DNA of 17,616 nt from a virus (taxonomy: Duplodnaviria; Heunggongvirae; Uroviricota; Caudoviricetes). Positions within the stretch are counted from its first letter, which is position 1. Each line of letters begins with the position of its first letter. Shown piece by piece: positions 7,058 through 17,616 of the stretch. A program made the position numbers and the translations under genes. The notes under the pieces were generated by a model. The model did not search any database, was not told where the DNA came from, and saw only the letters and a program-made list of their open reading frames with translations. The DNA is taken from IMG/VR virus record IMGVR_UViG_2713896768_000001, positions 1 through 17,616 of that record; one strand, written 5' to 3'.

Positions 7058-9314
7058 CGCAGATACGATTAAAGACTTCCTTGTTTCGCTGGGATTCGAT
7101 ATCGATCAGGCTGGCGCTAATAAGTTTGAAGCCGTGCTGAAAGGCGTTACCGCAAACGTTCTGAAGGTCGGCGCGGTGGTGGAAGGCGCAGCGCTGAGCA
7201 TTGTCGGATTTACCACCCAGATCGCGAATGGTCTGGATAAAATTTACTGGGCATCCCAACGGACGGGGGCCAGCGTCCAGGGCATCAAAGCGCTGGGCTA
7301 TGCCGCGTCGCAAACCGGTGCCAGCGCCGAGTCGGCCATGTCCTCCCTCGAAGGGCTGGCCGGTTTCATGCGTAGCAATCCGGGGGCGGAAGGCTTCCTG
7401 AACCGTCTTGGTGTCCAGACCCGAGATGCCAGCGGAAAGATGCGTGATACTGCGGCCATCTTTACTGGCGTTGGGCAAAAGCTCAACAACATGCCGTATT
7501 ACCGCGCGAAGCAATACGCGCAGATGCTTGGCATCGATGAAAACACGCTGATGGCGATGCGGCGCGGCATGAATGGCTTTACCGCCGATTACCAGTCTAT
7601 GCTGCAAAAGACTGGGTTCAACGCTGATAAGGCGGCTGTGCAGTCCAATAAATTCATGACGTCCATGCGCGGGCTTACGTCGCTGTTCGGCATTATGCGG
7701 GACAAGATCGGCTCAAACCTCGCTGGTGGTCTTGCTGGTTCGCTGGACAGCCTGCGGCGGCGCATCCTCGACAACTTCCCGAAGATTGAAGAGACGCTGA
7801 CCAGAGTTATTAAAGGCGTGATCTGGCTTGCGAACGCCTTCACGCGAATGGCGTGGCGGCTCATACAGGGCGCTGGCTCTGTCATTGACTGGTGGAAGCG
7901 TCTTGACGATGGCAGTAAAAATCTGCTGAAAATATTCGGTGCTCTACTTGTCGCATGGCGTCTGCTTAATTCTGCGTTCCTGAAATCCCCGATTGGAATT
8001 ATCACCACGCTGATTCTGGCGATCGGATTACTCTATGACGATTATCAGACGTGGAAAGAAGGCGGTAAAAGCCTGATTGACTGGTCCAAGTGGGAGCCTG
8101 CAATAGAAAAGGCGAAAAAGGCAATTCTCTGGCTGCGCGATAAGCTTCTGGGGCTGAAAGATTCTGTTGGTGGATGGCAGAACTCGCTGGAAATTTTGGC
8201 TACTTTCATCGCTGGGGTATGGGTAACAAAAGTATTGGGAGCATTCGCAAAAATATCCGGTCTTCCGATACCTCCATGGCTTAAATTATGGGGAGCGTAT
8301 GCTGGTTACCTGGTTTCAGATCGTGAAAACATAAAAGCCAGTGCTAAATCATCTTTGGACTATACCAAAAGGAACATTGGTGATGCTCTTGCTACGGTTG
8401 GCATCAAAACCGACCTTGGGCGAAAAGATGTTAGCGAGGTAAGAGAATGGCCCGCATGGATGGATTGGCTGCATGGTGGCCCAGGTAAGATTATTCGTCA
8501 GGCGCAAAGCAATGGCGTCGTTTATGGCGATAATGTTCAGCCTGACATTCCCGGGGCGGAACAGCATGTTCGTAGTAATGAAATTGCCCCGCATGAAAGA
8601 GATGAAATAAAAAACCGTCAGCAGGCTGCTAATGGTTATCTTGAAAAAATCTCAGACGGGATTGCCAAAATCGGTAATTTATTTTTCTCCCCGGCTGGAG
8701 CTGCTGAAATCTCTCCAAATATATCGGGTGACCCCTCCCAGTTTGCGCAATCAGTCAAACGTCCACAGGCCACAGCCCAGGGCAAAGTATTGCTCGACTG
8801 GATGGGGCCAATGTTCAATAAACTTGAGTCGCTTTATCAACTTCCAGCTGGTCTATTGAAAAGTGTGGCGATAACCGAGTCAGGTGGTAACCAGTTCGCC
8901 ATGTCCGGCGCGGGTGCAAAGGGGCTGTTCCAGTTCATGGATGGCACGGCGCGAGACATGGGCCTGCGTGGTAACGATGTGTTCGACCCGGAAAAGTCAG
9001 CTCAGGCAGCCGCTAAGTACCTTAGCCAGCTATTGCGGCAGAACGGCGGAGACCTTAGCAAAGCACTTGCATCATATAACTGGGGAATCGGGAACGTTCA
9101 ACGTTATGGAATGGGGCTAATGCCGCAGGAAACGCGCAATTACATTCCGAAAGTAATGAGCAATATGCCCACCAGCGCCCCGGTGATTCAGCAGGAAACG
9201 AACATTAACATCCACGGCGTTTCCGATCCTCGCGAAGCTGCCCGTTTGACTGTTGACCGTCAAAAGGGTGTGAATTCACAGTTAACCCAGCAACTCCCCG
9301 CAGGACCGAGATAA
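7047..9314 (+). CDS. Tail tape measure protein with C-terminal soluble lytic transglycosylase (SLT) domain
   Basis: 755-aa ORF following the chaperone. Alpha-helical Ala/Gly-rich N-terminal region, a hydrophobic central segment (…LLKIFGALLVAWRLLNSAFLKSPIGIITTLILAIGLLY…), and a C-terminal SLT signature (…AITESGGNQFAMSGAGAKGLFQFMDGTARDMGL…ASYNWGIGNV…) with the catalytic-type Glu in the E-S-G-G motif near 8877. Confidence 0.75.
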   Translation: MSGNADTIKDFLVSLGFDIDQAGANKFEAVLKGVTANVLKVGAVVEGAALSIVGFTTQIANGLDKIYWASQRTGASVQGIKALGYAASQTGASAESAMSSLEGLAGFMRSNPGAEGFLNRLGVQTRDASGKMRDTAAIFTGVGQKLNNMPYYRAKQYAQMLGIDENTLMAMRRGMNGFTADYQSMLQKTGFNADKAAVQSNKFMTSMRGLTSLFGIMRDKIGSNLAGGLAGSLDSLRRRILDNFPKIEETLTRVIKGVIWLANAFTRMAWRLIQGAGSVIDWWKRLDDGSKNLLKIFGALLVAWRLLNSAFLKSPIGIITTLILAIGLLYDDYQTWKEGGKSLIDWSKWEPAIEKAKKAILWLRDKLLGLKDSVGGWQNSLEILATFIAGVWVTKVLGAFAKISGLPIPPWLKLWGAYAGYLVSDRENIKASAKSSLDYTKRNIGDALATVGIKTDLGRKDVSEVREWPAWMDWLHGGPGKIIRQAQSNGVVYGDNVQPDIPGAEQHVRSNEIAPHERDEIKNRQQAANGYLEKISDGIAKIGNLFFSPAGAAEISPNISGDPSQFAQSVKRPQATAQGKVLLDWMGPMFNKLESLYQLPAGLLKSVAITESGGNQFAMSGAGAKGLFQFMDGTARDMGLRGNDVFDPEKSAQAAAKYLSQLLRQNGGDLSKALASYNWGIGNVQRYGMGLMPQETRNYIPKVMSNMPTSAPVIQQETNINIHGVSDPREAARLTVDRQKGVNSQLTQQLPAGPR

Positions 9315-9916
9315 TGGATATTTTATCAGCGATTTTTCGCCAGCAATCACGGCGAATTGGCCTGCTGATCCCCAGCGTGGTCGTTTCCGAAAAGCATTCT
9401 GATGCGCTCGAAATTACTGAGCACCCGGTGGAGAAGCCAACAACGAATAGCGCCTCGGGTTTCATCGCCGATCATGCGTATAAGCGCCCCAGCGAAGTCA
9501 CAATGGAATGCGGCTTCGCTGGGGGCGGTTCGTTGCTGGACTTCATTGATACATCTTCAATCGGCCTCAGCGCCGGACTGAGCCCGAAAGAGACCTATCA
9601 GCAACTGCTGGATCTCCAGTCCTCCCGGGTGCCGTTCGATGTGGTGACCGGGAAGCGGGTGTACAGCAATATGCTGGTGAGAGCCATCGAGGTGACAACG
9701 GACAAAACCAGCGAGAACGTGCTGAACTGCACGCTTACCCTGCGTGAAGTGATCATGTCGCAAACGCAGAGCGTTAGCGTTGCTGATAAATCAGATATGC
9801 AGGATGGCGTCAGCACATCGGCGGTGCAAAATTCCGGGACGAAATCCACTACACCGCCAAACGAATCTTTGCTGAGCCAGCTGGGCGGAAGCGTTACATC
9901 AGCATTCGGGGGATGA
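9314..9916 (+). CDS. Baseplate-associated protein (position of the Mu gp43/N-like protein; hypothetical)
   Basis: 200-aa ORF whose start overlaps the tape measure stop (TAATG at 9312-9316). Assignment is by synteny with a Mu-like baseplate cluster only. Confidence 0.4.
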   Translation: MDILSAIFRQQSRRIGLLIPSVVVSEKHSDALEITEHPVEKPTTNSASGFIADHAYKRPSEVTMECGFAGGGSLLDFIDTSSIGLSAGLSPKETYQQLLDLQSSRVPFDVVTGKRVYSNMLVRAIEVTTDKTSENVLNCTLTLREVIMSQTQSVSVADKSDMQDGVSTSAVQNSGTKSTTPPNESLLSQLGGSVTSAFGG

Positions 9917-9917
9917 T

Positions 9918-10223
9918 ATGCAGTTTAACGAAATACCGCTTTCTCCTGACAATCAGCAGTTCCGCGTTTTGCTGGGCAATACTACGTATACGCTCAGGAT
10001 CATCTGGCGCGATGCGGCTGGTTGGATTATGGACGTGATGGATAGCGGCGGTGCCGCGCTTCTCTCTGGCGTACCTCTACTGACCGGCGTGAACCTTTTA
10101 CGACAATTTCCACAGCTTGGCATTGATGGTGCGCTGGTGGTGGCGACCGATAAGGGCGCACCAGACGAGCCCACCAAAACCAACCTCGGCACATACAGCC
10201 ACCTCATTTTCGTGCAGGAGTAG
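9918..10223 (+). CDS. Small baseplate/tail protein (hypothetical)
   Basis: 101-aa ORF starting 2 nt after the previous stop; placed by synteny between tape measure and hub genes. Confidence 0.4.
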   Translation: MQFNEIPLSPDNQQFRVLLGNTTYTLRIIWRDAAGWIMDVMDSGGAALLSGVPLLTGVNLLRQFPQLGIDGALVVATDKGAPDEPTKTNLGTYSHLIFVQE

Positions 10224-10225
10224 AA

Positions 10226-11290
10226 ATGTCTCTTAACTGGATGCGCCATTTTGAGTTGCAGCTGTTGGACCAGAACGGGCAGGGTATTTCCCTGTCTGAT
10301 TTTAAGGTCACGTTCCAGATCGAGTGGGCAGATACACGCTGGCCGCGCGTGGCAAACGTGAAAATTTACAACCTTTCGACCGATACCACGAACAAGATAC
10401 TGGGGCAGGAGTTTGCAAAAATTCGCATCATTGCCGGGTATGACGGTATTGCGCCGGATGTTGATGCGAGCCAGGTTGGTGTCGCCCGGGAGATTTCACC
10501 AGACCAGGTAGGGCAGGTGAACGGTCAGAACTACGGCCTGATATTTGACGGTGATATTCGCTTCACCGTCACCGGGAAGGACAACATCACCGATTCCTGG
10601 GTGCTGATTCAGGCCATCAGTAACCACGAAGCGTTCCTCTACGCGACTACCATCACCACGCTTGCCGCTGGCTATACCGTTGCGGATCTGCACCGGGCGA
10701 CGATGCAGGATTTCAACGCGTTCGGCGTGACACAGGGCATTACCGGCGATTTTCCTGATACCGTGTTTCCTCGTGGCCGCGCGATTTACTCATCCAGCCG
10801 CAACGTGATGGATAATATTGCTGCGCAGTGCAAAGCGACATGGCAACTGGTGGATGGTCAGGTCCAGATGGTGCCGGAGGATAAATATATTCACGAAGCC
10901 ATTGTGTTGAATGCCAATACTGGCCTGATCGGTATGCCGCAACAAACGATGGGCGGCGGAGTAAACGTGCGGTGCCTGATAAACCCAAACATCCGTATTA
11001 ATGGTCTTATCCAGCTCGATCAGGCTTCGGTGTACCGCGCCGCGCTCGGCAATAGCGAAATCGCACAGTCGCCCGGGCGTATCACTGAAACGGAAGAGAA
11101 CGGCAACCGCGCACTGACCGGCACAACGTCACAGGCTGCCAGCATTGCGACAGATGGCGTTTATATCGTCAAAGCTATCGACTATACTGGCGACACCAGA
11201 GGTCAGGCGTGGTACATGGATTTGATGTGTTTTGCGCGTGGTGCTCGTGAAATGGTTAGTCAGGACACGCTTAAAAAATGGCAGGTATAA
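10226..11290 (+). CDS. Baseplate hub protein (P2 gpD / Mu gp44-like)
   Basis: 354-aa ORF with an AGGAG RBS. Size and position after tape measure and before the spike gene match the hub of P2/Mu-type baseplates. Confidence 0.55.
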   Translation: MSLNWMRHFELQLLDQNGQGISLSDFKVTFQIEWADTRWPRVANVKIYNLSTDTTNKILGQEFAKIRIIAGYDGIAPDVDASQVGVAREISPDQVGQVNGQNYGLIFDGDIRFTVTGKDNITDSWVLIQAISNHEAFLYATTITTLAAGYTVADLHRATMQDFNAFGVTQGITGDFPDTVFPRGRAIYSSSRNVMDNIAAQCKATWQLVDGQVQMVPEDKYIHEAIVLNANTGLIGMPQQTMGGGVNVRCLINPNIRINGLIQLDQASVYRAALGNSEIAQSPGRITETEENGNRALTGTTSQAASIATDGVYIVKAIDYTGDTRGQAWYMDLMCFARGAREMVSQDTLKKWQV

Positions 11291-11291
11291 G

Positions 11292-11642
11292 ATGGGTAAG
11301 GCCAAACTTCTAATTTGTGGTGTTCTTTTATCAGTTGTCGGCACGTCAGAGGCCTTAGCTGATACTCAGTGCGGGCCGTATCGCCTCACTGCGGGCAAAG
11401 AAGGACTAATGCTTATTAACGGGGTAAAACCTGAAACGCAAAAAATGTCTTTTCTCAAGTCTAAAGATGACTACCAAAACATGAAAGCAGAATGGATGGT
11501 TGCAACCGACCAACCCGGCCGCTGGGTTGGGCTTGAGTACATCAAGCGCAACGGCAAAGCCATTCTCAACGCACAGTGGTTGCAAGCCAGCATGGATTCG
11601 CCGCGTCAGTATGCAACATACGACTGCGTGAAGGTGAAATGA
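11292..11642 (+). CDS. Small exported protein with Sec signal peptide (accessory moron gene; function unknown)
   Basis: ATG at 11292, 2 nt after the hub stop, with an AGGT RBS. N-terminus MGKAKLLICGVLLSVVGTSEALA|DTQCG… has a basic n-region, hydrophobic core and A-L-A signal peptidase I site, with no lipobox. The mature protein is about 94 aa with two Cys. By eye it is AT-richer than flanking tail genes and it interrupts the conserved hub-spike adjacency. Confidence 0.55.
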   Translation: MGKAKLLICGVLLSVVGTSEALADTQCGPYRLTAGKEGLMLINGVKPETQKMSFLKSKDDYQNMKAEWMVATDQPGRWVGLEYIKRNGKAILNAQWLQASMDSPRQYATYDCVKVK

Positions 11643-11659
11643 TGATCCGCATCCTTAAA

Positions 11660-11724
11660 CATCAATAATCGTTGATCTCGCGTTTTTATTATGCACTAAT
11701 CTGTACATGTACAGAGAGGGTGCC
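11660..11724 (+). promoter_or_regulatory. Putative promoter/operator of the toxin-antitoxin operon, including a perfect 14-bp palindrome CTGTACATGTACAG (11701-11714) and a GAGAGGG Shine-Dalgarno
   Basis: 82-nt AT-rich intergenic region. The palindrome was checked by reverse complement and abuts the RBS. A weak sigma70-like pair is possible (TTGATC at 11672-11677, ACTAAT at 11695-11700, 17-nt spacer). Palindromic operators bound by Phd/YefM antitoxins are established for this family. Confidence 0.45.
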
Positions 11725-12138
11725 ATGAAAATCATTACTTACACGCAAATGCGATCGGATTTATCTGCAACGCTGGACTGTTTACGCTCTGGTGAAAGCG
11801 TCACAGTTACGCAGCGCGGAAAGCCCGACCTTGTCATCAGTGCAAAATCAGTTGATGAAATCGCTTCCGCAGATGAGGTAAAAACATCTGCGAAAACAAT
11901 AGACACGCATCTTGCGCAATTAATTGCATCGAATTTGTCACCACAGATAACGGAGGGTGTCATGAAGCTTACTAAGCAATTGGATGCCCTTCTTCAGTCT
12001 GATGAGGCTCGCCAGACTATGATGAAGGCCACTAATGCAGCAGTTGCTTTGCAGGGCGTGTCTGAGTCATTTATCAAAGCTCTGCAACATACTCAGACCA
12101 AGCATGCGGACATCATAAAAAAACTGGAAGATAAGTAA
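11725..12138 (+). CDS. Phd/YefM-family antitoxin with an extended helical C-terminal domain (137 aa; typical Phd/YefM is about 75-90 aa)
   Basis: N-terminus MKIITYTQMRSDLSATLDCLRSGESVTVTQRGKPDLVISAKS matches the YefM/Phd N-terminal fold (compare remembered YefM [41 protein letters not shown]). The ATG at 11725 with a GAGGG SD is preferred over the track start at 11707, which lies inside the palindrome. The stop overlaps the toxin start (TAATG). Confidence 0.7.
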   Translation: MKIITYTQMRSDLSATLDCLRSGESVTVTQRGKPDLVISAKSVDEIASADEVKTSAKTIDTHLAQLIASNLSPQITEGVMKLTKQLDALLQSDEARQTMMKATNAAVALQGVSESFIKALQHTQTKHADIIKKLEDK

Positions 12139-12545
12139 TGACTGAGATTACATTCCTTTCGGTAGATGAGGTCATCGCTATTCAGAAGAGCACATTGCCA
12201 AATAGCGGACAACCAGACCGGGGAAAACTCGAAGGTGCCCTCAATCGCGTCGATAACTTACGCATGTATGAAGGATGTGAGGATTTATTTAAATTTGCAG
12301 CTATGTACATGGTTGCGATAGCGAAGTCTCACGCTTTTAATGACGCCAATAAGCGAACGGCTTTCCAGGCCGCCAGCGTGTTTTTGCTTTTGAATGGCTA
12401 TGAACTGAATACCTCAATGGAGTTAGTCAAGCTGACCATCTTTGCTGCTACGGGAGAGGCCGACTGCGATAACACTGCTTTGGCGCTTAAACTTTTGTCA
12501 GATTATAAGAATGAGCTGCTGGCAGATACGATAACTGGCTACTGA
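12138..12545 (+). CDS. doc: Doc (death-on-curing) / Fic-family toxin
   Basis: 135-aa ORF translationally coupled to the antitoxin. It contains the Doc signature H-x-F-x-D-A-N-K-R (SHAFNDANKRTAFQAASVFLLLNGY, codons at about 12330-12356), compared with remembered P1 Doc …GHIFNDANKRTALNSALLFLRRNG…. Confidence 0.8.
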   Translation: MTEITFLSVDEVIAIQKSTLPNSGQPDRGKLEGALNRVDNLRMYEGCEDLFKFAAMYMVAIAKSHAFNDANKRTAFQAASVFLLLNGYELNTSMELVKLTIFAATGEADCDNTALALKLLSDYKNELLADTITGY

Positions 12546-12567
12546 TAGCAAAAAGTAAATTGTACAC

Positions 12568-12592
12568 AACCCGCCGCCGAGCGGGTTTTTTT
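12568..12592 (+). terminator. Rho-independent terminator (stem ACCCGC / GCGGGT, loop CGCCGA, followed by a T7 run)
   Basis: Read directly: aacccgc-cgccga-gcgggtttttttat, 23 nt after the toxin stop and just before the RBS of the spike gene at 12604. Confidence 0.65.
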
Positions 12593-12603
12593 ATGGAGTT
12601 TTT

Positions 12604-13344
12604 ATGCCAATTCCAACTCAATCACAGATCGGCGGCGAGCAGCAGACCGCGCAGGCCATAGCCGATTCGGTGTCTACCCAGATGCGCGTAGCGATGCCAG
12701 GCATCATTCAGTCGTTCGATCCTGACGCTGTAACCTGCACAGTAGAAGTGGCGCTTCGCGGTATTGTTGGCGACGGCTCCACCGAATTAAAACCGCTGGT
12801 GGATGTTCCTGTCATCTTCCCGCGCGGCGGCGGCTGCACGCTGACCTTTCCGGTTAAAGAAGGCGACGAGTGCCTGCTGCTCTTTGCCGACCGTTGCATC
12901 GATTTCTGGTGGCAGAGCGGCGGCGTGCAGGAGACCGTCGACCCGCGCCAGCATGACTTATCTGATGCGTTCGCCATCGTTGGCCCACAGTCGCAAGCAC
13001 GGAAAATCAGCGGTATCAGTACCAGCGCCGCGCAGCTGCGAACCGATGATGGTGCGGCGTTTGTAGAAGTCGCCGCAGGACATAACATCACCATTAAAAC
13101 ACCGGGCCAGCTTACAGCTACGGCTGAAGGTGGAACGACAATCACATCCCCGACTATCACGCTGAACGGCAACGTAACGATTAATGGCAACTTGTCTCAG
13201 GGAATGGGCGAAAGCGGCGGTACTGCGACGATGCTTGGGCCGGTGACGGTAACGAATGACGTAACAGCTTCTGGTATCAGTGTCGCCACGCATAAACATG
13301 GCGGAGTACAGACTGGCGGGGGAACTACCGGAGGGCCGCAATAA
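12604..13344 (+). CDS. Baseplate central spike protein (P2 gpV / Mu gp45-like) with C-terminal beta-helix and His-x-His tip
   Basis: 246-aa ORF with a GGAG RBS. The C-terminal region is Gly/Thr-rich and repetitive (…TITSPTITLNGNVTINGNLSQG…) and ends …VATHKHGGVQTGGGTTGGPQ (HKH at 13291-13299), matching the iron-binding apex motif known for spike proteins. Confidence 0.6.
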   Translation: MPIPTQSQIGGEQQTAQAIADSVSTQMRVAMPGIIQSFDPDAVTCTVEVALRGIVGDGSTELKPLVDVPVIFPRGGGCTLTFPVKEGDECLLLFADRCIDFWWQSGGVQETVDPRQHDLSDAFAIVGPQSQARKISGISTSAAQLRTDDGAAFVEVAAGHNITIKTPGQLTATAEGGTTITSPTITLNGNVTINGNLSQGMGESGGTATMLGPVTVTNDVTASGISVATHKHGGVQTGGGTTGGPQ

Positions 13345-13697
13345 TGCGATACCGTCGCGAAGATACTGAAGGCGATTACACTTTCGGCCAGGGTGACGAT
13401 ACTTTCCTTATCGACAGTCCGGAATGTGTCGCCCAGGCCGTAAAAACCCGTTTCGAGCTGTGGCGCGGTCAGTGGTTTCTCGATCTGACGGAAGGCACGC
13501 CGTATGTTCAGTCAGTGCTTGGGAAGCAGCGATCAGATGTCTACATCCTGGCTATACGCGAACGCATACAGGATACACCGGGCGTTCTGTCGATTCTTTC
13601 CTTCGATACCAATTATGACGGCACCAGCCGTCGCGTCACCTTCACTTCCTCCATTGACACAATCTACGGCCAGACGACTGTAACAAGCGAGGCATAA
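13344..13697 (+). CDS. Baseplate wedge protein (gp25 / P2 gpW / Mu gp46-like)
   Basis: 117-aa ORF whose start overlaps the spike stop (TAATG). Size and position between spike and J-like genes. Confidence 0.5.
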   Translation: MRYRREDTEGDYTFGQGDDTFLIDSPECVAQAVKTRFELWRGQWFLDLTEGTPYVQSVLGKQRSDVYILAIRERIQDTPGVLSILSFDTNYDGTSRRVTFTSSIDTIYGQTTVTSEA

Positions 13698-14897
13698 ATG
13701 GCTTTGAACCTCGACACGCTGGGGCTATCGGCAACGGTAACCGCCCAGGGGATTAGTGCGCCTGATTACCAGACAATCCTTGATACACTGACCAGCTATT
13801 TCAGGCAGATTTACGGTAGTGATGCCTACCTAGAACCAGACAGCAAAGACGGGCAGATGGTCGCGCTGGTGGCTCTTGCCGTGCATGACGCTAACAACAC
13901 CGCTATCGAGATTTACAACTCGTTTTCACCGATGACAGCGCAGGCCGCAGCGCTTAGCAGCAATGTGAAAATTAACGGGATCACGCGAAAAGTAGCGACA
14001 AACTCTACTGCTGACCTTCTGTTAACCGGTACGGCAGGCACGACTATCACGAATGGCTCCGCACGGGATAAAAACGGCATTATCTGGAATTTTCCAGCGA
14101 GTGTGGCGATCGGCGTTGATGGTACTGTGCTGGTGACGGCCACATGTGCGAATAGCGGTTCGGTTGCGGCGCTGGCCGGGACTATTACCACTATCAACAC
14201 CCCGACCCGAGGTTGGGTGTCGGTAACCAATCCAGTTGCGGCTACTGTCGGTTCACCAGCCGAAACCGACGCAGAGCTGCGCATTCGGCAGGGGCAAAGC
14301 GTCGCGCTACCATCGATCACACCGTTTGAAGGTGTCGACGGTGCTATCGCTAATGTTGCTGGCGTGACACGTCACAAACTATATGAGAACGACACTGGGG
14401 CAACCGACAGCAACGGGCTGCCGCCACACTCTATTTCCGCCATCGTCGATGGAGGGGATGTTACCGAGATAGCCCAGACCATCAGGGGGAATAAAGGGCA
14501 GGGAACGGCAACCTACGGGACAACTTCTGTCACAGTGCCGGATACTTACGGTAATCCTCACGTCATCAGTTTTTCACGCTCTACCGATGTGCCAATTTTC
14601 GTAGCCATTACCCTGAAAGTTTTTACCGGGTATACATCTCAAATCGGCGAGCAGATCAAACAGGCTGTTGCCGACTATATTAATGGCCTGACAATTGGCG
14701 ACGACGTTCTGCTGAGCCGTATTTATTCCCCGGCAAACCTCGGCGTTGTGAGCGGCGGGAATGCCCGCTATTACGATATTACCGACCTGCTGATCGGTAA
14801 GTCGTCTGGCAGCGTATCGGCATCAAACATTGATATTGCCTATGATGCTTCAGCGTCCTGTAGCACCGCGAATATCAGTATCACGGTGACCTCATGA
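13698..14897 (+). CDS. Baseplate J-like protein (P2 gpJ / Mu gp47 / T4 gp6 family)
   Basis: 399-aa ORF starting right after the previous stop; size and synteny are typical of baseplate J. Confidence 0.6.
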   Translation: MALNLDTLGLSATVTAQGISAPDYQTILDTLTSYFRQIYGSDAYLEPDSKDGQMVALVALAVHDANNTAIEIYNSFSPMTAQAAALSSNVKINGITRKVATNSTADLLLTGTAGTTITNGSARDKNGIIWNFPASVAIGVDGTVLVTATCANSGSVAALAGTITTINTPTRGWVSVTNPVAATVGSPAETDAELRIRQGQSVALPSITPFEGVDGAIANVAGVTRHKLYENDTGATDSNGLPPHSISAIVDGGDVTEIAQTIRGNKGQGTATYGTTSVTVPDTYGNPHVISFSRSTDVPIFVAITLKVFTGYTSQIGEQIKQAVADYINGLTIGDDVLLSRIYSPANLGVVSGGNARYYDITDLLIGKSSGSVSASNIDIAYDASASCSTANISITVTS

Positions 14898-15574
14898 GCA
14901 AATACACCGAACTGATCACTAACTACCACGCTACCAAGCCACTCTTTTTTGACCATATAGATCTGAGCACCCGCCCGCTGATTGATGTGTCCAGCACTAT
15001 GTCAGGGCTTATAACAGCCTTCGATATCGATACTGCTGTCGGTGTACAGCTCGACATCCTCGGTCTGTGGATCGGACGCAGTCGCATAGTCAGCCAGCCA
15101 ATTAGCGGAGTTTATTTCAGCTGGGACACTGACGGGCTTGGGTATGACCAGGGCATCTGGCAAGGGCCATATGATCCTGATTCTGGCTATACGACGCTAA
15201 GCGATGAGACGTACCGCATCATTCTGAAAGCGAAAATCGCTATCAACAACTGGGACGGTCGGAACGACTCTCTGCCTCCCATCCTTGACGCTGCTACCGC
15301 AGGCTCAGGCCTGAGGATGCAGATCGTCGACAACCAGGACATGACGATTTCGGTCTGGGTTTCCCCTGAAACTGATATTTCTGATGTGTCTCTCGAACTG
15401 ATCGCCGCTATCAAACAGGGCTATCTCACCGTTAAATCAGCTGGCGTATGGGCCGGTGATGTTGAAACGCCTTCGGTAGAAACACCGTCAGAAGGCTCTA
15501 AATTCTTTGGGTTTGATATGGATAACGAATACATCGGCGGGTTCGATGTTGGAGCATGGGGGACAATACTCTAA
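14894..15574 (+). CDS. Baseplate/tail protein (P2 gpI / Mu gp48-like, DUF2612-type)
   Basis: 226-aa ORF with ATGA overlap to the J-like gene; positioned immediately upstream of the tail fibre gene. Confidence 0.5.
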   Translation: MSKYTELITNYHATKPLFFDHIDLSTRPLIDVSSTMSGLITAFDIDTAVGVQLDILGLWIGRSRIVSQPISGVYFSWDTDGLGYDQGIWQGPYDPDSGYTTLSDETYRIILKAKIAINNWDGRNDSLPPILDAATAGSGLRMQIVDNQDMTISVWVSPETDISDVSLELIAAIKQGYLTVKSAGVWAGDVETPSVETPSEGSKFFGFDMDNEYIGGFDVGAWGTIL

Positions 15575-16515
15575 TGGCAATAAACAACTTTAAACCTTTC
15601 GCGCTTGATCCGAACGCTAACGTCACCTCACAAGCTGACTGGGAAGCACTTCCGGCTCTGCTTTCAGGGTTTACGGCAGGTAAAGCATCCAGCGCACAGG
15701 TCAACAAAGCCATTCGACAGGCCAGCTTTATTGCGGCAGCGCTTGCGCAGTACACAGCCAACAAAAGTGGGCTGGACGTGCTTGATGATGGTGACCTGAA
15801 CGGCTTTATCTCCAAAATGGGAACCGCTTTCGGGAAGGATTTCCAGGCACTTGATGCCACGCTGACGGCATTGGCAGGGCTCGCAACAGGTGAAAATAAA
15901 CTCCCGTATTTCACTGGAAATGATACAGCAGCGCAGACTGATTTAACTTCTGTCGGCCGCGACATTATTGGTAAAAGCACTATTGCTGACATTCTCACAT
16001 ACCTTGGTTTGGGAGAAGGCTCTGCATTACCTGTCGGTGTGCCTGTTCCGTGGCCTTCCGCCACTCCGCCGACAGGCTGGCTAAAATGCAATGGTGCGGC
16101 TTTTTCTGCTGAAGAATACCCGGAACTGGCAAAGGCTTACCCGACAAATAAATTGCCTGATTTACGCGGTGAATTTATTCGTGGCTGGGATGATGGGCGT
16201 AGTGCGGATGCGGGGAGAACAATATTATCCGCTCAGGGCGATGCCATACGTAATATCTATGGTGAGTTCAAGACTGTAAACACCGAAAATTATTCAATAT
16301 GGGAAGTAGCAAGCTCGTTTAAGGGAGCAGTGGTGCCTTTGAGTCCCTCTACAAACAATAGTTATTTCTCCTTAACCAGAAGTATGGTGACAGAAAGGTC
16401 CGAGGGCGGTGTTTACCCAAAAGTGATTGGCCTTGATGCTTCAAGAATTGTTCCAACTGCAAACGAAAATCGACCCCGTAACATTGCCTTTAATTATATC
16501 GTGAGGGCTGCCTGA
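15574..16515 (+). CDS. Tail fibre protein with C-terminal phage tail-collar domain; the C-terminal about 170 aa lie inside the invertible segment
   Basis: The ATG at 15574 overlaps the upstream stop (TAATG); the track start at 15556 is 6 codons upstream in the same frame. The collar-type motif …PVGVPVPWPSATPPTGWLKCNGAAFSAEEYPELAKAYPTNKLPDLRGEFIRGWDDGR… and the ending …RPRNIAFNYIVRAA are typical. A hix/gix-like site sits at codons around Tyr-Leu-Gly-Leu-Gly-Glu. Confidence 0.7.
   Translation: MAINNFKPFALDPNANVTSQADWEALPALLSGFTAGKASSAQVNKAIRQASFIAAALAQYTANKSGLDVLDDGDLNGFISKMGTAFGKDFQALDATLTALAGLATGENKLPYFTGNDTAAQTDLTSVGRDIIGKSTIADILTYLGLGEGSALPVGVPVPWPSATPPTGWLKCNGAAFSAEEYPELAKAYPTNKLPDLRGEFIRGWDDGRSADAGRTILSAQGDAIRNIYGEFKTVNTENYSIWEVASSFKGAVVPLSPSTNNSYFSLTRSMVTERSEGGVYPKVIGLDASRIVPTANENRPRNIAFNYIVRAA
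15992..16017. other. Left crossover site for a Gin/Hin/Pin-family DNA invertase: TTCTCACATACC-TT-GGTTTGGGAGAA
   Basis: Two 12-bp half-sites in inverted orientation (10/12 matching) around a 2-bp core, with 17/26 identity to the remembered gix site TTCCTGTAAACCGAGGTTTTGGATAA. An inverted copy appears at the window end, and a visible composition change begins near here. Confidence 0.6.
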
Positions 16516-17120
16516 TGGATAAAGCTATATTAAATAAGGAACTCATCGCCACAAAGGCGGGAGATATTACCGTTTATAATTATGATGGTGAAACACGAGA
16601 ATATATTTCCACATCAACCGAATATCTTGCTGTGGGTGTCGGTATCCCGGCATGTTCCTGTTTAGATGCTCCTGGCTCATATAAAGCTGGTTATGCAATT
16701 TGCCGTTCTGCAGATTTTAACTCATGGGAATATGTGCCAGACCATCGCGGTGAAATCGTCTATAGCACCGAAACAGGAGAATCAAAAGAAATCACAGCTC
16801 CGGGTGATTACCCTGAAAAGACAACCACTATCGCCCCGTTAACGCCATACGATAAATGGGATGGTGAGAAATGGGTGACGGATACCGAGGCACAGCATAG
16901 AGCAGCAGTAGACATGGCAGAAACACAGCGGCAGTCGCTGATTGATGCTGCAATGGTTTCCATTAGTCTGATTCAACTGAAATTGCAGGCCGGGCGGAAG
17001 CTGACGCAGGCAGAAAACACCCGACTTAACGCCGTGCTGGATTACACTGACGCGGTGATGGCAACAGATACCAGCACCGCGTCAGATGTCATCTGGCCAG
17101 TTCCTCCTGAGACGGTTTAA
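16515..17120 (+). CDS. tfa: Tail fibre assembly protein (Tfa)
   Basis: 201-aa ORF whose start overlaps the fibre stop (TGATG). The C-terminus …LNAVLDYTDAVMATDTSTASDVIWPVPPETV matches the conserved Tfa C-terminal pattern seen in lambda/P2/Mu-type assembly chaperones. Confidence 0.7.
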   Translation: MDKAILNKELIATKAGDITVYNYDGETREYISTSTEYLAVGVGIPACSCLDAPGSYKAGYAICRSADFNSWEYVPDHRGEIVYSTETGESKEITAPGDYPEKTTTIAPLTPYDKWDGEKWVTDTEAQHRAAVDMAETQRQSLIDAAMVSISLIQLKLQAGRKLTQAENTRLNAVLDYTDAVMATDTSTASDVIWPVPPETV

Positions 17121-17376
17121 TCTCAATCAGAATGGGTTCTCCCTTCTCGTTAACAGATATTTCCATTCCTTCAGGGATTTCAGATGCAGTAAAAAACCAG
17201 TTATCTTCTGGTAATTCAACAGCCCCGGTCACGTCATGAAGACCGGGGATTACTTCAGTCAAAGTAACAGGATTAAACAGGCGCACAATAAACCCTCCAG
17301 GAAAAAGCACTTGTTGATGGTGTTCCGTCGTACATCTGGCAGCGGACATAAAAACCGGTATTAGTGACCTGGTCAT
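17089..17376 (-). CDS. Minus-strand ORF downstream of the alternative fibre domain: possible short tfa' or frame-disrupted remnant
   Basis: 95-aa track ORF, but its first 34 codons overlap the Sv' reading frame and no convincing RBS/start follows the Sv' stop. Its 3' end overlaps the + strand tfa by 32 nt. It ends …EIKPSQEELAR. Coding status is uncertain. Confidence 0.25.
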   Translation of the reverse strand: MTRSLIPVFMSAARCTTEHHQQVLFPGGFIVRLFNPVTLTEVIPGLHDVTGAVELPEDNWFFTASEIPEGMEISVNEKGEPILIEIKPSQEELAR

Positions 17377-17616
17377 CCACGATCATTGAAACGTGAACGT
17401 TATTAGATGTGCCCCCATAATCCGTTCCTATTCTTTCCGCTATGCTGATAAAACGTGAAAGCTTAGGTAGCGCAATTGGATAAACGACTTTAGCCAGTCC
17501 ATTATCATTAGAACCCCCCGTTCCAAAGACTTCTATTGCACCATCTGACCAGCGTATCCACGCACCATTGGCATTAGCTCCTCGCTGAATGACATATCTG
17601 GCTTCTCCCAAACCAA
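17273..17616 (-). CDS. Alternative tail fibre C-terminal variable domain (Sv'-like), 5'-partial: open to the window edge, silent in this orientation
   Basis: The - strand frame is open from the window end to the stop at 17273-17275. The track start is a TTG, and the reading frame continues through the crossover site in the same frame as the fibre constant region. Confidence 0.5.
   Translation of the reverse strand, partial: GLGEARYVIQRGANANGAWIRWSDGAIEVFGTGGSNDNGLAKVVYPIALPKLSRFISIAERIGTDYGGTSNNVHVSMIVDDQVTNTGFYVRCQMYDGTPSTSAFSWRVYCAPV
17603..17616. other. Right crossover site for the invertase, truncated by the window end (TTCTCCCAAACC-AA…)
   Basis: The last 14 nt of the window are the exact reverse complement of 16004-16017 (TTGGTTTGGGAGAA), i.e. 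the first half-site plus core of an inverted copy of the left site. The rest would lie beyond the window. Confidence 0.55.

Follow-up and report, generated by a model that had tools for sequence, protein, structure and literature searches.

We analysed a 17,616-nucleotide stretch of DNA from a virus of the Caudoviricetes (IMG/VR record IMGVR_UViG_2713896768_000001, positions 1 to 17,616; this whole stretch is called the window) and found that positions 15992-17616 very probably constitute the 1.6-kb invertible segment of a two-state tail-fibre switch of the Pin/Gin type. The original prediction, made from the letters of the window, had proposed a Gin/Hin-type invertible tail-fibre switch at this place. 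The comparison of related loci, which are given L numbers here, bore this proposal out, because both orientations of the segment were found on identical backbones (L018 and L010; L020 and L023). The segment lies within the tail-fibre gene at its left end and reaches the window end at its right. The coordinates of the crossover sites, the fibre genes and the invertase gene are listed in Table 1.

The left crossover site codes for the residues ILTYLGLGE of the fibre. It had been predicted to carry the AAACC-nn-GGTTT core of the gix, hix and cix sites. The half-site layout and the GGTTT of the right half were confirmed, but the left half reads ATACC and not AAACC, and the canonical motif is therefore present in the right half only. 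The final 14 nt of the window (17603-17616, TTCTCCCAAACCAA) were, as claimed, an exact inverted copy of part of this site, namely the reverse complement of 16004-16017, and the perfect inverted repeat in fact comprises 15 nt (16004-16018 and 17602-17616). The 14-mer occurred just twice in the 17.6-kb window when two or fewer mismatches were allowed, the number expected being 0.07, and two copies were present in none of 200 dinucleotide shuffles of the window. A third site could not be found at two or fewer mismatches in the window or in L018; both hold two copies only.

To complete the right site, we used L018, which extends past the window end. The L018 sequence completed this site to 26 bp (TTCTCCCAAACC-AA-CCTTTTTTATAA); it is inverted relative to the left site and shares its TT/AA core. 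The 3' extension proposed as a check of the original prediction thus yielded, through L018, a recombinase gene and a completed 26-bp site, but not the outer half-site that had been predicted. The remaining 12 nt were expected to read GGTATGTGAGAA and read CCTTTTTTATAA in L018, and there is no full 26-bp inverted repeat. The outer half-site on the invertase side is degenerate (TTATAAAAAAGG read inward), and just 15 nt are common to both sites. The right site of e14 in E. coli MG1655 is likewise degenerate (TTCTCCCAAACC-AA-CGTTTATGAAAA), and the inner 14 bp of the sites (TT-GGTTTGGGAGAA) are identical to those of the e14 Pin sites of E. coli K-12 in the MG1655 sequence. We also extracted the gix, cix and pix sites for comparison, and their 26-bp layout matches that of the sites of the window. 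With the right site taken from L018, the segment is accordingly bounded by two inverted 26-bp sites with imperfect 12-bp half-sites and a common non-palindromic 2-bp core, as are the segments of the Gin, Hin, Cin and Pin systems. BLAST matches began at the left site (window 15986-16004 in the phage search and 15986-16001 in the search of complete E. coli genomes), which indicates that the site is a module boundary.

The evidence of inversion came from pairs of close relatives. The E. coli assembly GCA_001039215.2 (L008 and L018, the latter being contig LDXD02000011) was 99.957% identical to window positions 3698-17616 (13.9 kb). L010 (GCA_038404605.1) was 100% identical to window positions 4894-16018 and then continued with the reverse complement of the window end. 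In L010, the residues ILTYLGLGE of the fibre were joined in frame to ARYVIQRG of the alternative tip, and this fusion had been called as a 257-aa gene. When L020 was compared with L023, the 2,930-nt flanks were 100.000% identical on each side and the 1.6-kb segment was flipped between the 26-bp sites. The segment was flipped likewise between L026 and L029 and between L024 and L028, and the breakpoints lay at the sites in all of these pairs. The same cassette was present on three tail backbones, namely a P2-like type, a Mu-like type and the DUF2612/Wedge1 type of the window, and its orientation with respect to the invertase gene varied, both being represented among the ten places inspected.

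At base level, the junctions of more than 20 loci were compared. All had the same inner 14 bp, with one copy on each strand. The outer half-sites stayed with the flank, and the first bases inside the segment (GGCTCT, GCCAGA or GCGGCA) swapped sides. Fixed outer halves together with exchanged inner sequence are the mark left when DNA is broken and rejoined at the central dinucleotide. Experiments on clonal E. coli cultures have demonstrated that the e14 segment inverts, as do the P2-like and Mu prophage fibre loci of enteropathogenic E. coli (EPEC) (PMC4272514), and the gene families enriched in a catalogue of programmed inversions include fibre genes (Milman et al. 2023, PMC9881135).

The inversion exchanges the C-terminus of the tail fibre together with its assembly gene, in frame. 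One orientation gives the order Sc (constant part), Sv (variable part with a Collar domain) and U (Caudo_TAP chaperone), and the other gives Sc, S'v (alternative tip) and U' (65 aa). The minus-strand frame entering at the window end stayed open for 114 codons. This frame and that of the fibre gene agree when joined at the TT core, as the original prediction had stated for the inverted state; in L010 the alternative tip is in reality attached to an Sc that is 100% identical. The further claim that a collar-type C-terminus is replaced with an unrelated one also held, since Sv matched Collar with an E value of 1.4e-15 and S'v gave a weak match to Gp53-like_C only (E 0.0047). Sv was approximately 90% identical to the stf or tail-fibre ends of HK97 and P2-like phages in BLAST, and its stop overlaps the start of U. 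The fibre gene likely starts at ATG 15574, which is part of a TAATG (15572-15576) overlapping the TAA of the upstream DUF2612/Wedge1 gene; the longest open reading frame (ORF) begins at the in-frame ATG 15556. The ORF of 313/319 aa ends at 16515, and the fibre is called as a 313-aa gene in L008 and L018.

The assembly gene of the alternative tip is unusual. U' has a GTG start preceded by a GGAGGG Shine-Dalgarno sequence, overlaps the stop of S'v and converges with U in a 32-nt overlap at the 3' end of the latter. It is annotated as a coding sequence in RefSeq relatives, the index of the collection lists its exact protein in 4,195 blocks, and it stood between S'v and U in each of the ten places inspected. 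U' is probably an assembly protein for S'v in minimal or truncated form. Among the 4,195 blocks, 805 hold only contigs shorter than 2 kb, a distribution that would fit assembly breaks around an invertible segment.

Table 1. Sites and genes of the invertible tail-fibre segment and its right flank
Feature	Position	Strand	Sequence or basis
Left crossover site, complete	15992-16017	+	TTCTCACATACC-TT-GGTTTGGGAGAA; 12-bp half-sites around 2-bp core TT at 16004-16005
Right crossover site, inner half and core	17603-17616	-	TTCTCCCAAACC-AA on + strand
Right crossover site, outer half	window-equivalent 17617-17628, past window end		CCTTTTTTATAA; from L018
Sc, constant N-terminal part of the fibre, ~143-150 aa	15574..16003	+	ORF list; PHROG tail-fibre matches on residues 1-156
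Sv, variable fibre C-terminus in expressed position	16018..16515	+	Pfam Collar, E 1.4e-15, residues 161-208; PHROG tail collar fibre matches
U, 201-aa tail-fibre assembly chaperone cognate to Sv	16515..17120	+	Pfam Caudo_TAP, E 2.3e-29; phrog_105 tail fiber assembly, E 3.7e-95
U', 65-aa ORF 3' of S'v	17089..17286	-	phrog_5400 (unknown function), E 2.6e-23; weak phrog_188 tail-fibre-assembly match, E 3.6e-4
S'v, silent alternative fibre C-terminus, 114 codons, without own start	17273..17616	-	translation; fused to Sc in L010
Invertase gene, 182 aa	window-equivalent 17688-18236, 71 nt past window end		from L018

A serine invertase gene had been expected just beyond the 3' end of the window, and L018 carries such a gene there, outside both the segment and the window. 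A gene annotated as encoding a recombinase family protein also lay directly 3' of the segment in both annotated E. coli relatives first inspected. The L018 protein contains the Pfam domains Resolvase (3.6e-39) and HTH_7 (1.5e-9) and matches the DNA invertases of phrog_125 at 6.5e-75. It aligns end to end with the Mu Gin structures 3uj3 and 4m6f (E 1.4e-56) and less closely with gamma-delta resolvase (4e-25), and it is 100% identical to the annotated DNA invertase of the lambdoid phage mEp237. The ORF is uninterrupted, and the catalytic Ser9, Arg42 and the equivalent of Phe106 are conserved. With NCBIfam, neither the invertase nor the fibre parts could be assigned to a specific family, all matches being far below the curated cut-offs.

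On the basis of these findings, the switch would operate as follows. The late operon would read through the constant Sc, and the small serine recombinase encoded just outside the segment would bind the two 26-bp sites. A recombinase tetramer would synapse the sites and make 2-bp staggered cuts at the central TT/AA through phosphoserine links, and a 180-degree rotation of subunits followed by rejoining would flip the 1.6 kb; the chemistry of cutting and rotation is presumed by analogy with the Gin/Hin family. In the orientation of the window, Sc would be followed by the Collar-type Sv and then by the 201-aa chaperone U, and in the other orientation by the unrelated S'v in frame and then by the 65-aa U'. 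A consensus scan of the segment gave two promoter-like matches against a shuffle mean of 3.7, none of them above chance, and the lack of a significant promoter signal suggests that only the tip joined to Sc would be made from the late operon. The only terminator-like hairpins that a scan found in the segment were weak and were not interpreted. In phage Mu, the G(+) and G(-) orientations provide two tips with different receptor specificities. By analogy, the two tips described here may bind different receptors, and a population of lysogens would then yield virions of either specificity.

Several points weigh against this conclusion or limit it. Outside the window are the invertase gene and the outer half of the right site, both placed by way of the 99.96% identical contig, so their presence in the source strain is presumed from that relative. 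Ongoing flipping in the source strain is likewise presumed. The adjacent invertase is only 49-57% identical to the characterised enzymes and lacks the residues that mark dependence on Fis and its enhancer, and the details of control may therefore differ. It is presumably this adjacent enzyme that flips the segment in the source strain; however, classical Pin-like invertases use the same inner half-site, and the enzyme of another prophage within one cell could act on the segment in trans. In the prophages of L001, L020 and L028, the same cassette is indeed served by classical enzymes. Finally, U' has no Caudo_TAP domain and, with 65 aa, is atypically short for a second assembly gene, and the S'v state might consequently give a poorly assembled fibre.

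We considered whether the locus is instead a frozen remnant, that is, whether the sites are inherited but no longer flip, the invertase being inactive or absent or the prophage defective, and the orientation being a fixed trait of the lineage. The window alone holds a single orientation and no recombinase, and decayed relatives do occur: L007 retains the left site alone and lacks an invertase, mEp237 has an invertase and one site, and the fibre and chaperone genes of L002 are pseudogenised. Nevertheless, both sites are intact with identical cores, the L018 invertase ORF is uninterrupted and retains the catalytic serine, and L010 carries the opposite orientation on a backbone 100% identical to that of the window, which requires a recent flip. 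A frozen remnant is thus improbable.

It is far less probable still that the repeat is a by-product of convergent fibre ends that share the LGLGE motif, with occasional homologous recombination as the source of the rearrangement. It is true that a conserved fibre motif is encoded in the 15 nt common to both sites and that mosaicism is notorious in tail-fibre modules, the Sv-U module being present also in HK97, P2-like and other phages. However, RecA-dependent exchange would be inefficient over a length of 15 nt, and the sites have the 12-2-12 structure with an inner half and core the same as those of the proven e14 sites. We rejected this explanation because the breakpoints fell exactly at the site in every pair compared and a Gin-family invertase gene always adjoined. 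A multi-segment system with more than two tips, comparable with Min of p15B or the three-repeat P2-like locus of EPEC and seen only in part in the window, deserves almost no credence, since multi-site versions do exist in E. coli prophages (PMC4272514) but the window and L018 have only two copies of the site at two or fewer mismatches, two tips and two downstream ORFs. A shufflon of the Rci type, with a tyrosine recombinase and multiple sfx repeats, was also rejected, the recombinase being of the serine type and the sites only two.

Having settled on a two-state Pin/Gin-type switch, we examined the relationship of the adjacent invertase to the characterised enzymes. The classical set of the alignment consisted of Gin, Cin, PinE and four classical-type prophage enzymes, which are 72-95% identical to one another. 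The invertases of L018, L003, L012, L016 and L025 formed a separate clade, 79-92% identical within itself and 49-57% identical to the classical enzymes. Two Fis sites 48 bp apart in the 5' end of the invertase gene are the known position of the enhancer. Perfect matches to KNNYRNNWNNYRNNM, which we take to be the degenerate Fis consensus, were present at nt 23 and 71 of the gene, 48 bp apart, in all seven classical genes. The hin gene, with one extra codon, presumably has its perfect matches at nt 26 and 74. A pair of perfect matches to this same degenerate consensus was found in none of the five clade genes, which showed one mismatch in each site, a shifted spacing or no pair.

The protein residues agreed with the result for the Fis consensus. 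The helix E lock F-F-F-H-x-M of the classical enzymes (F-F-F-H-x-M-x-x-L-x-M in full) was replaced with Y-N-F-R-x-I-x-x-A-x-Y in 120 of 120 clade representatives. Hin K47, R/K51, Q151, R154 and L155 are the residues uniquely conserved in Fis/enhancer-dependent invertases; position 51 is a basic residue of helix B, and Q151, R154 and L155 contact Fis (McLean et al., PMC3798978). The L018 enzyme keeps K47 and has A, E, E and R at Hin positions 51, 151, 154 and 155. Across the clade, the position of Hin K51 was non-basic in 117 of 120 representatives, and positions 151, 154 and 155 were variable, with R in 44 and L in 55 of the 120. Hin F105N inverts independently of Fis, with apparent in vivo rates above those of the wild type, and Phe106 is essential (Chang and Johnson, PMC4513852); the clade has Asn at the position of F105 and Phe at that of Phe106. 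H107Y is a hyperactivating mutation of Hin (PMC3798978), and the enzyme carries Arg at this position.

These results do not place the enzyme in the Fis/enhancer-dependent subfamily, and the switch is of the Pin/Gin type by its architecture, sites and behaviour. We found no characterisation of the divergent clade in the literature that we searched. Tentatively, and with somewhat less than even confidence, we propose that the switch of this prophage type is served by a distinct Gin-like clade (MIYGYARVSTNHQ...) that is widespread in Enterobacterales and possibly freed of Fis/enhancer control. The enzyme would perhaps be limited instead by a hairpin that buries its ribosome-binding site, and it would still act on pix-type sites whose outer half beside the gene is strongly degenerate and A/T-rich.

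The leader of the L018 invertase gene contains such a hairpin at 13957-13983 (window-equivalent ~17654-17680), with 11-12 bp (TTTCTCCTGTT...AACAGGAGAAA) and a leader energy of approximately -22 kcal/mol, in which the Shine-Dalgarno sequence AGGAGA is buried. The hairpin was kept in all six divergent-clade loci (6/6), with one compensatory pair change in L025 and mEp237, and a weaker analogous pairing was observed upstream of classical pin-like genes. The hairpin may throttle translation of the invertase.

Compared with the known systems Mu G/Gin, P1 C/Cin and e14 P/Pin, the locus works above all like that of e14 in E. coli K-12. The order of elements is the same in both, with Sc, a site, tip and chaperone converging on chaperone and tip, a second site and the invertase, and in both the C-terminus of the tail fibre is exchanged. 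Besides sharing the inner half-site and core, the two are linked by L028, in which the same cassette is served by an enzyme of the PinE type, 95% identical to PinE. They differ in their outer half-sites, which are TTCTCACATACC and TTATAAAAAAGG here and CTCTCGAAAACC and TTTTCATAAACG in e14. They also differ in the adjacent invertase, which is 55% identical to PinE, and in the cassette, which is not stfP/tfaP/tfaE/stfE and has a 65-aa ORF as its second chaperone.

With Mu G/Gin (gix) and P1 C/Cin (cix), the locus shares an invertase just outside the segment, 26-bp sites with 12-bp half-sites, convergent S/U and S'/U' pairs and a switch of host range, and the best match of the adjacent enzyme among solved structures is Mu Gin. 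In contrast, the segment is 1.6 kb long and that of Mu approximately 3 kb, the core is TT and that of Mu TC, and the half-sites differ. The adjacent enzyme is 51-52% identical to Gin and Cin, whereas these two are 75% identical to each other; its gene lacks the pair of matches at nt 23 and 71 to what we take to be the Fis consensus, and its Fis-contact residues are changed.

The hix sites presumably also have only approximately 14-15 bp in common and degenerate outer halves, as the sites here do. The Hin/hix system of Salmonella uses an enzyme of the same family (PMC3798978, PMC4513852), but Hin flips a promoter and not a coding end, and it is strictly Fis/enhancer dependent. The enzyme described here is naturally substituted at positions F105 and H107, where substitutions give Fis-independent Hin. 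The class of event is that of the P2-like and Mu prophage fibre loci of EPEC E2348/69, where clonal cultures were sequenced to show it (Goldberg et al. 2014, PMC4272514), and of the catalogued gene-altering inversions (PMC9881135). Unlike those loci, the cassette of the window is carried on an Omnitron-like myovirus baseplate module (DUF2612/Wedge1 and baseplate J) and is adjoined by an invertase of the divergent clade.

Conceptually, the switch is nothing new, as Mu, P1, e14 and the P2-like prophages set the principle decades ago, and the same cassette is present in thousands of sequenced E. coli genomes. The finding is of use for annotation, since it identifies two minus-strand hypothetical proteins as the silent fibre tip and the helper of that tip. 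Two products come from the fibre gene of this prophage, and assemblies will be broken or contradictory at this place. If a natural and abundant Gin-family invertase does act without Fis and the enhancer, it would provide a ready-made test of how that control evolved and a compact inversion tool that needs no host factor. A Fis-independent clade would, if true, be of moderate interest to specialists in recombinases.

The element that carries the segment is, judged by sequence similarity, a temperate Omnitron-like myovirus prophage of E. coli integrated beside yciI/tonB. Its structural module resembles that of Citrobacter phage Omnitron at 96%, and the flank in L018 is E. coli chromosome at 99.3% on the yciI-tonB side. 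The mEp237 record annotates an attachment site at the yciI-tonB locus as similar to that of phage Phi80. Many sequenced E. coli genomes carry copies of the cassette at approximately 99% identity, among them copies in P2-like prophages. An exact-protein look-up of the 319-aa fibre of the window gave no match, and the neighbouring baseplate proteins were therefore used to retrieve the contigs.

Further observations were made on the relatives and on the rest of the window. Position 17616 is the exact end of the 15-nt repeat, where the two orientations diverge, and the L010 contig (11722) also ends inside the segment. Such ends could be assembler breaks from mixed orientations or reflect how the window was cut, and they were not used as evidence because the left junction was assembled through and the window end may be arbitrary. 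In mEp237 (L019, JQ182730), positions 2454-5549 contain one recognisable crossover site and an msgA-like gene in the position of the alternative tip; the switch at this locus is probably frozen. Window 17047-17085 on the plus strand, in the 3' end of U just before the overlap of the convergent genes, holds a 15-nt inverted repeat around a 9-nt loop (CTGACGCGGTGATGG / CCAGCACCGCGTCAG), which could be a bidirectional stem-loop between two expression units.

Outside the segment, window 7047-9314 on the plus strand encodes a 755-aa protein in the tape-measure position with a lytic transglycosylase (SLT) domain; the protein measures 667-755 aa among relatives. Plus-strand positions 11707-12138 and 12138-12545 encode a Phd-like antitoxin and a Fic-domain protein between baseplate genes of the tail module (Pfam, via L018 8028-8848). 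This pair was absent from L006, L012, L016 and L017, suggesting that it is a variable moron, that is, toxin-antitoxin or host-modifying cargo.

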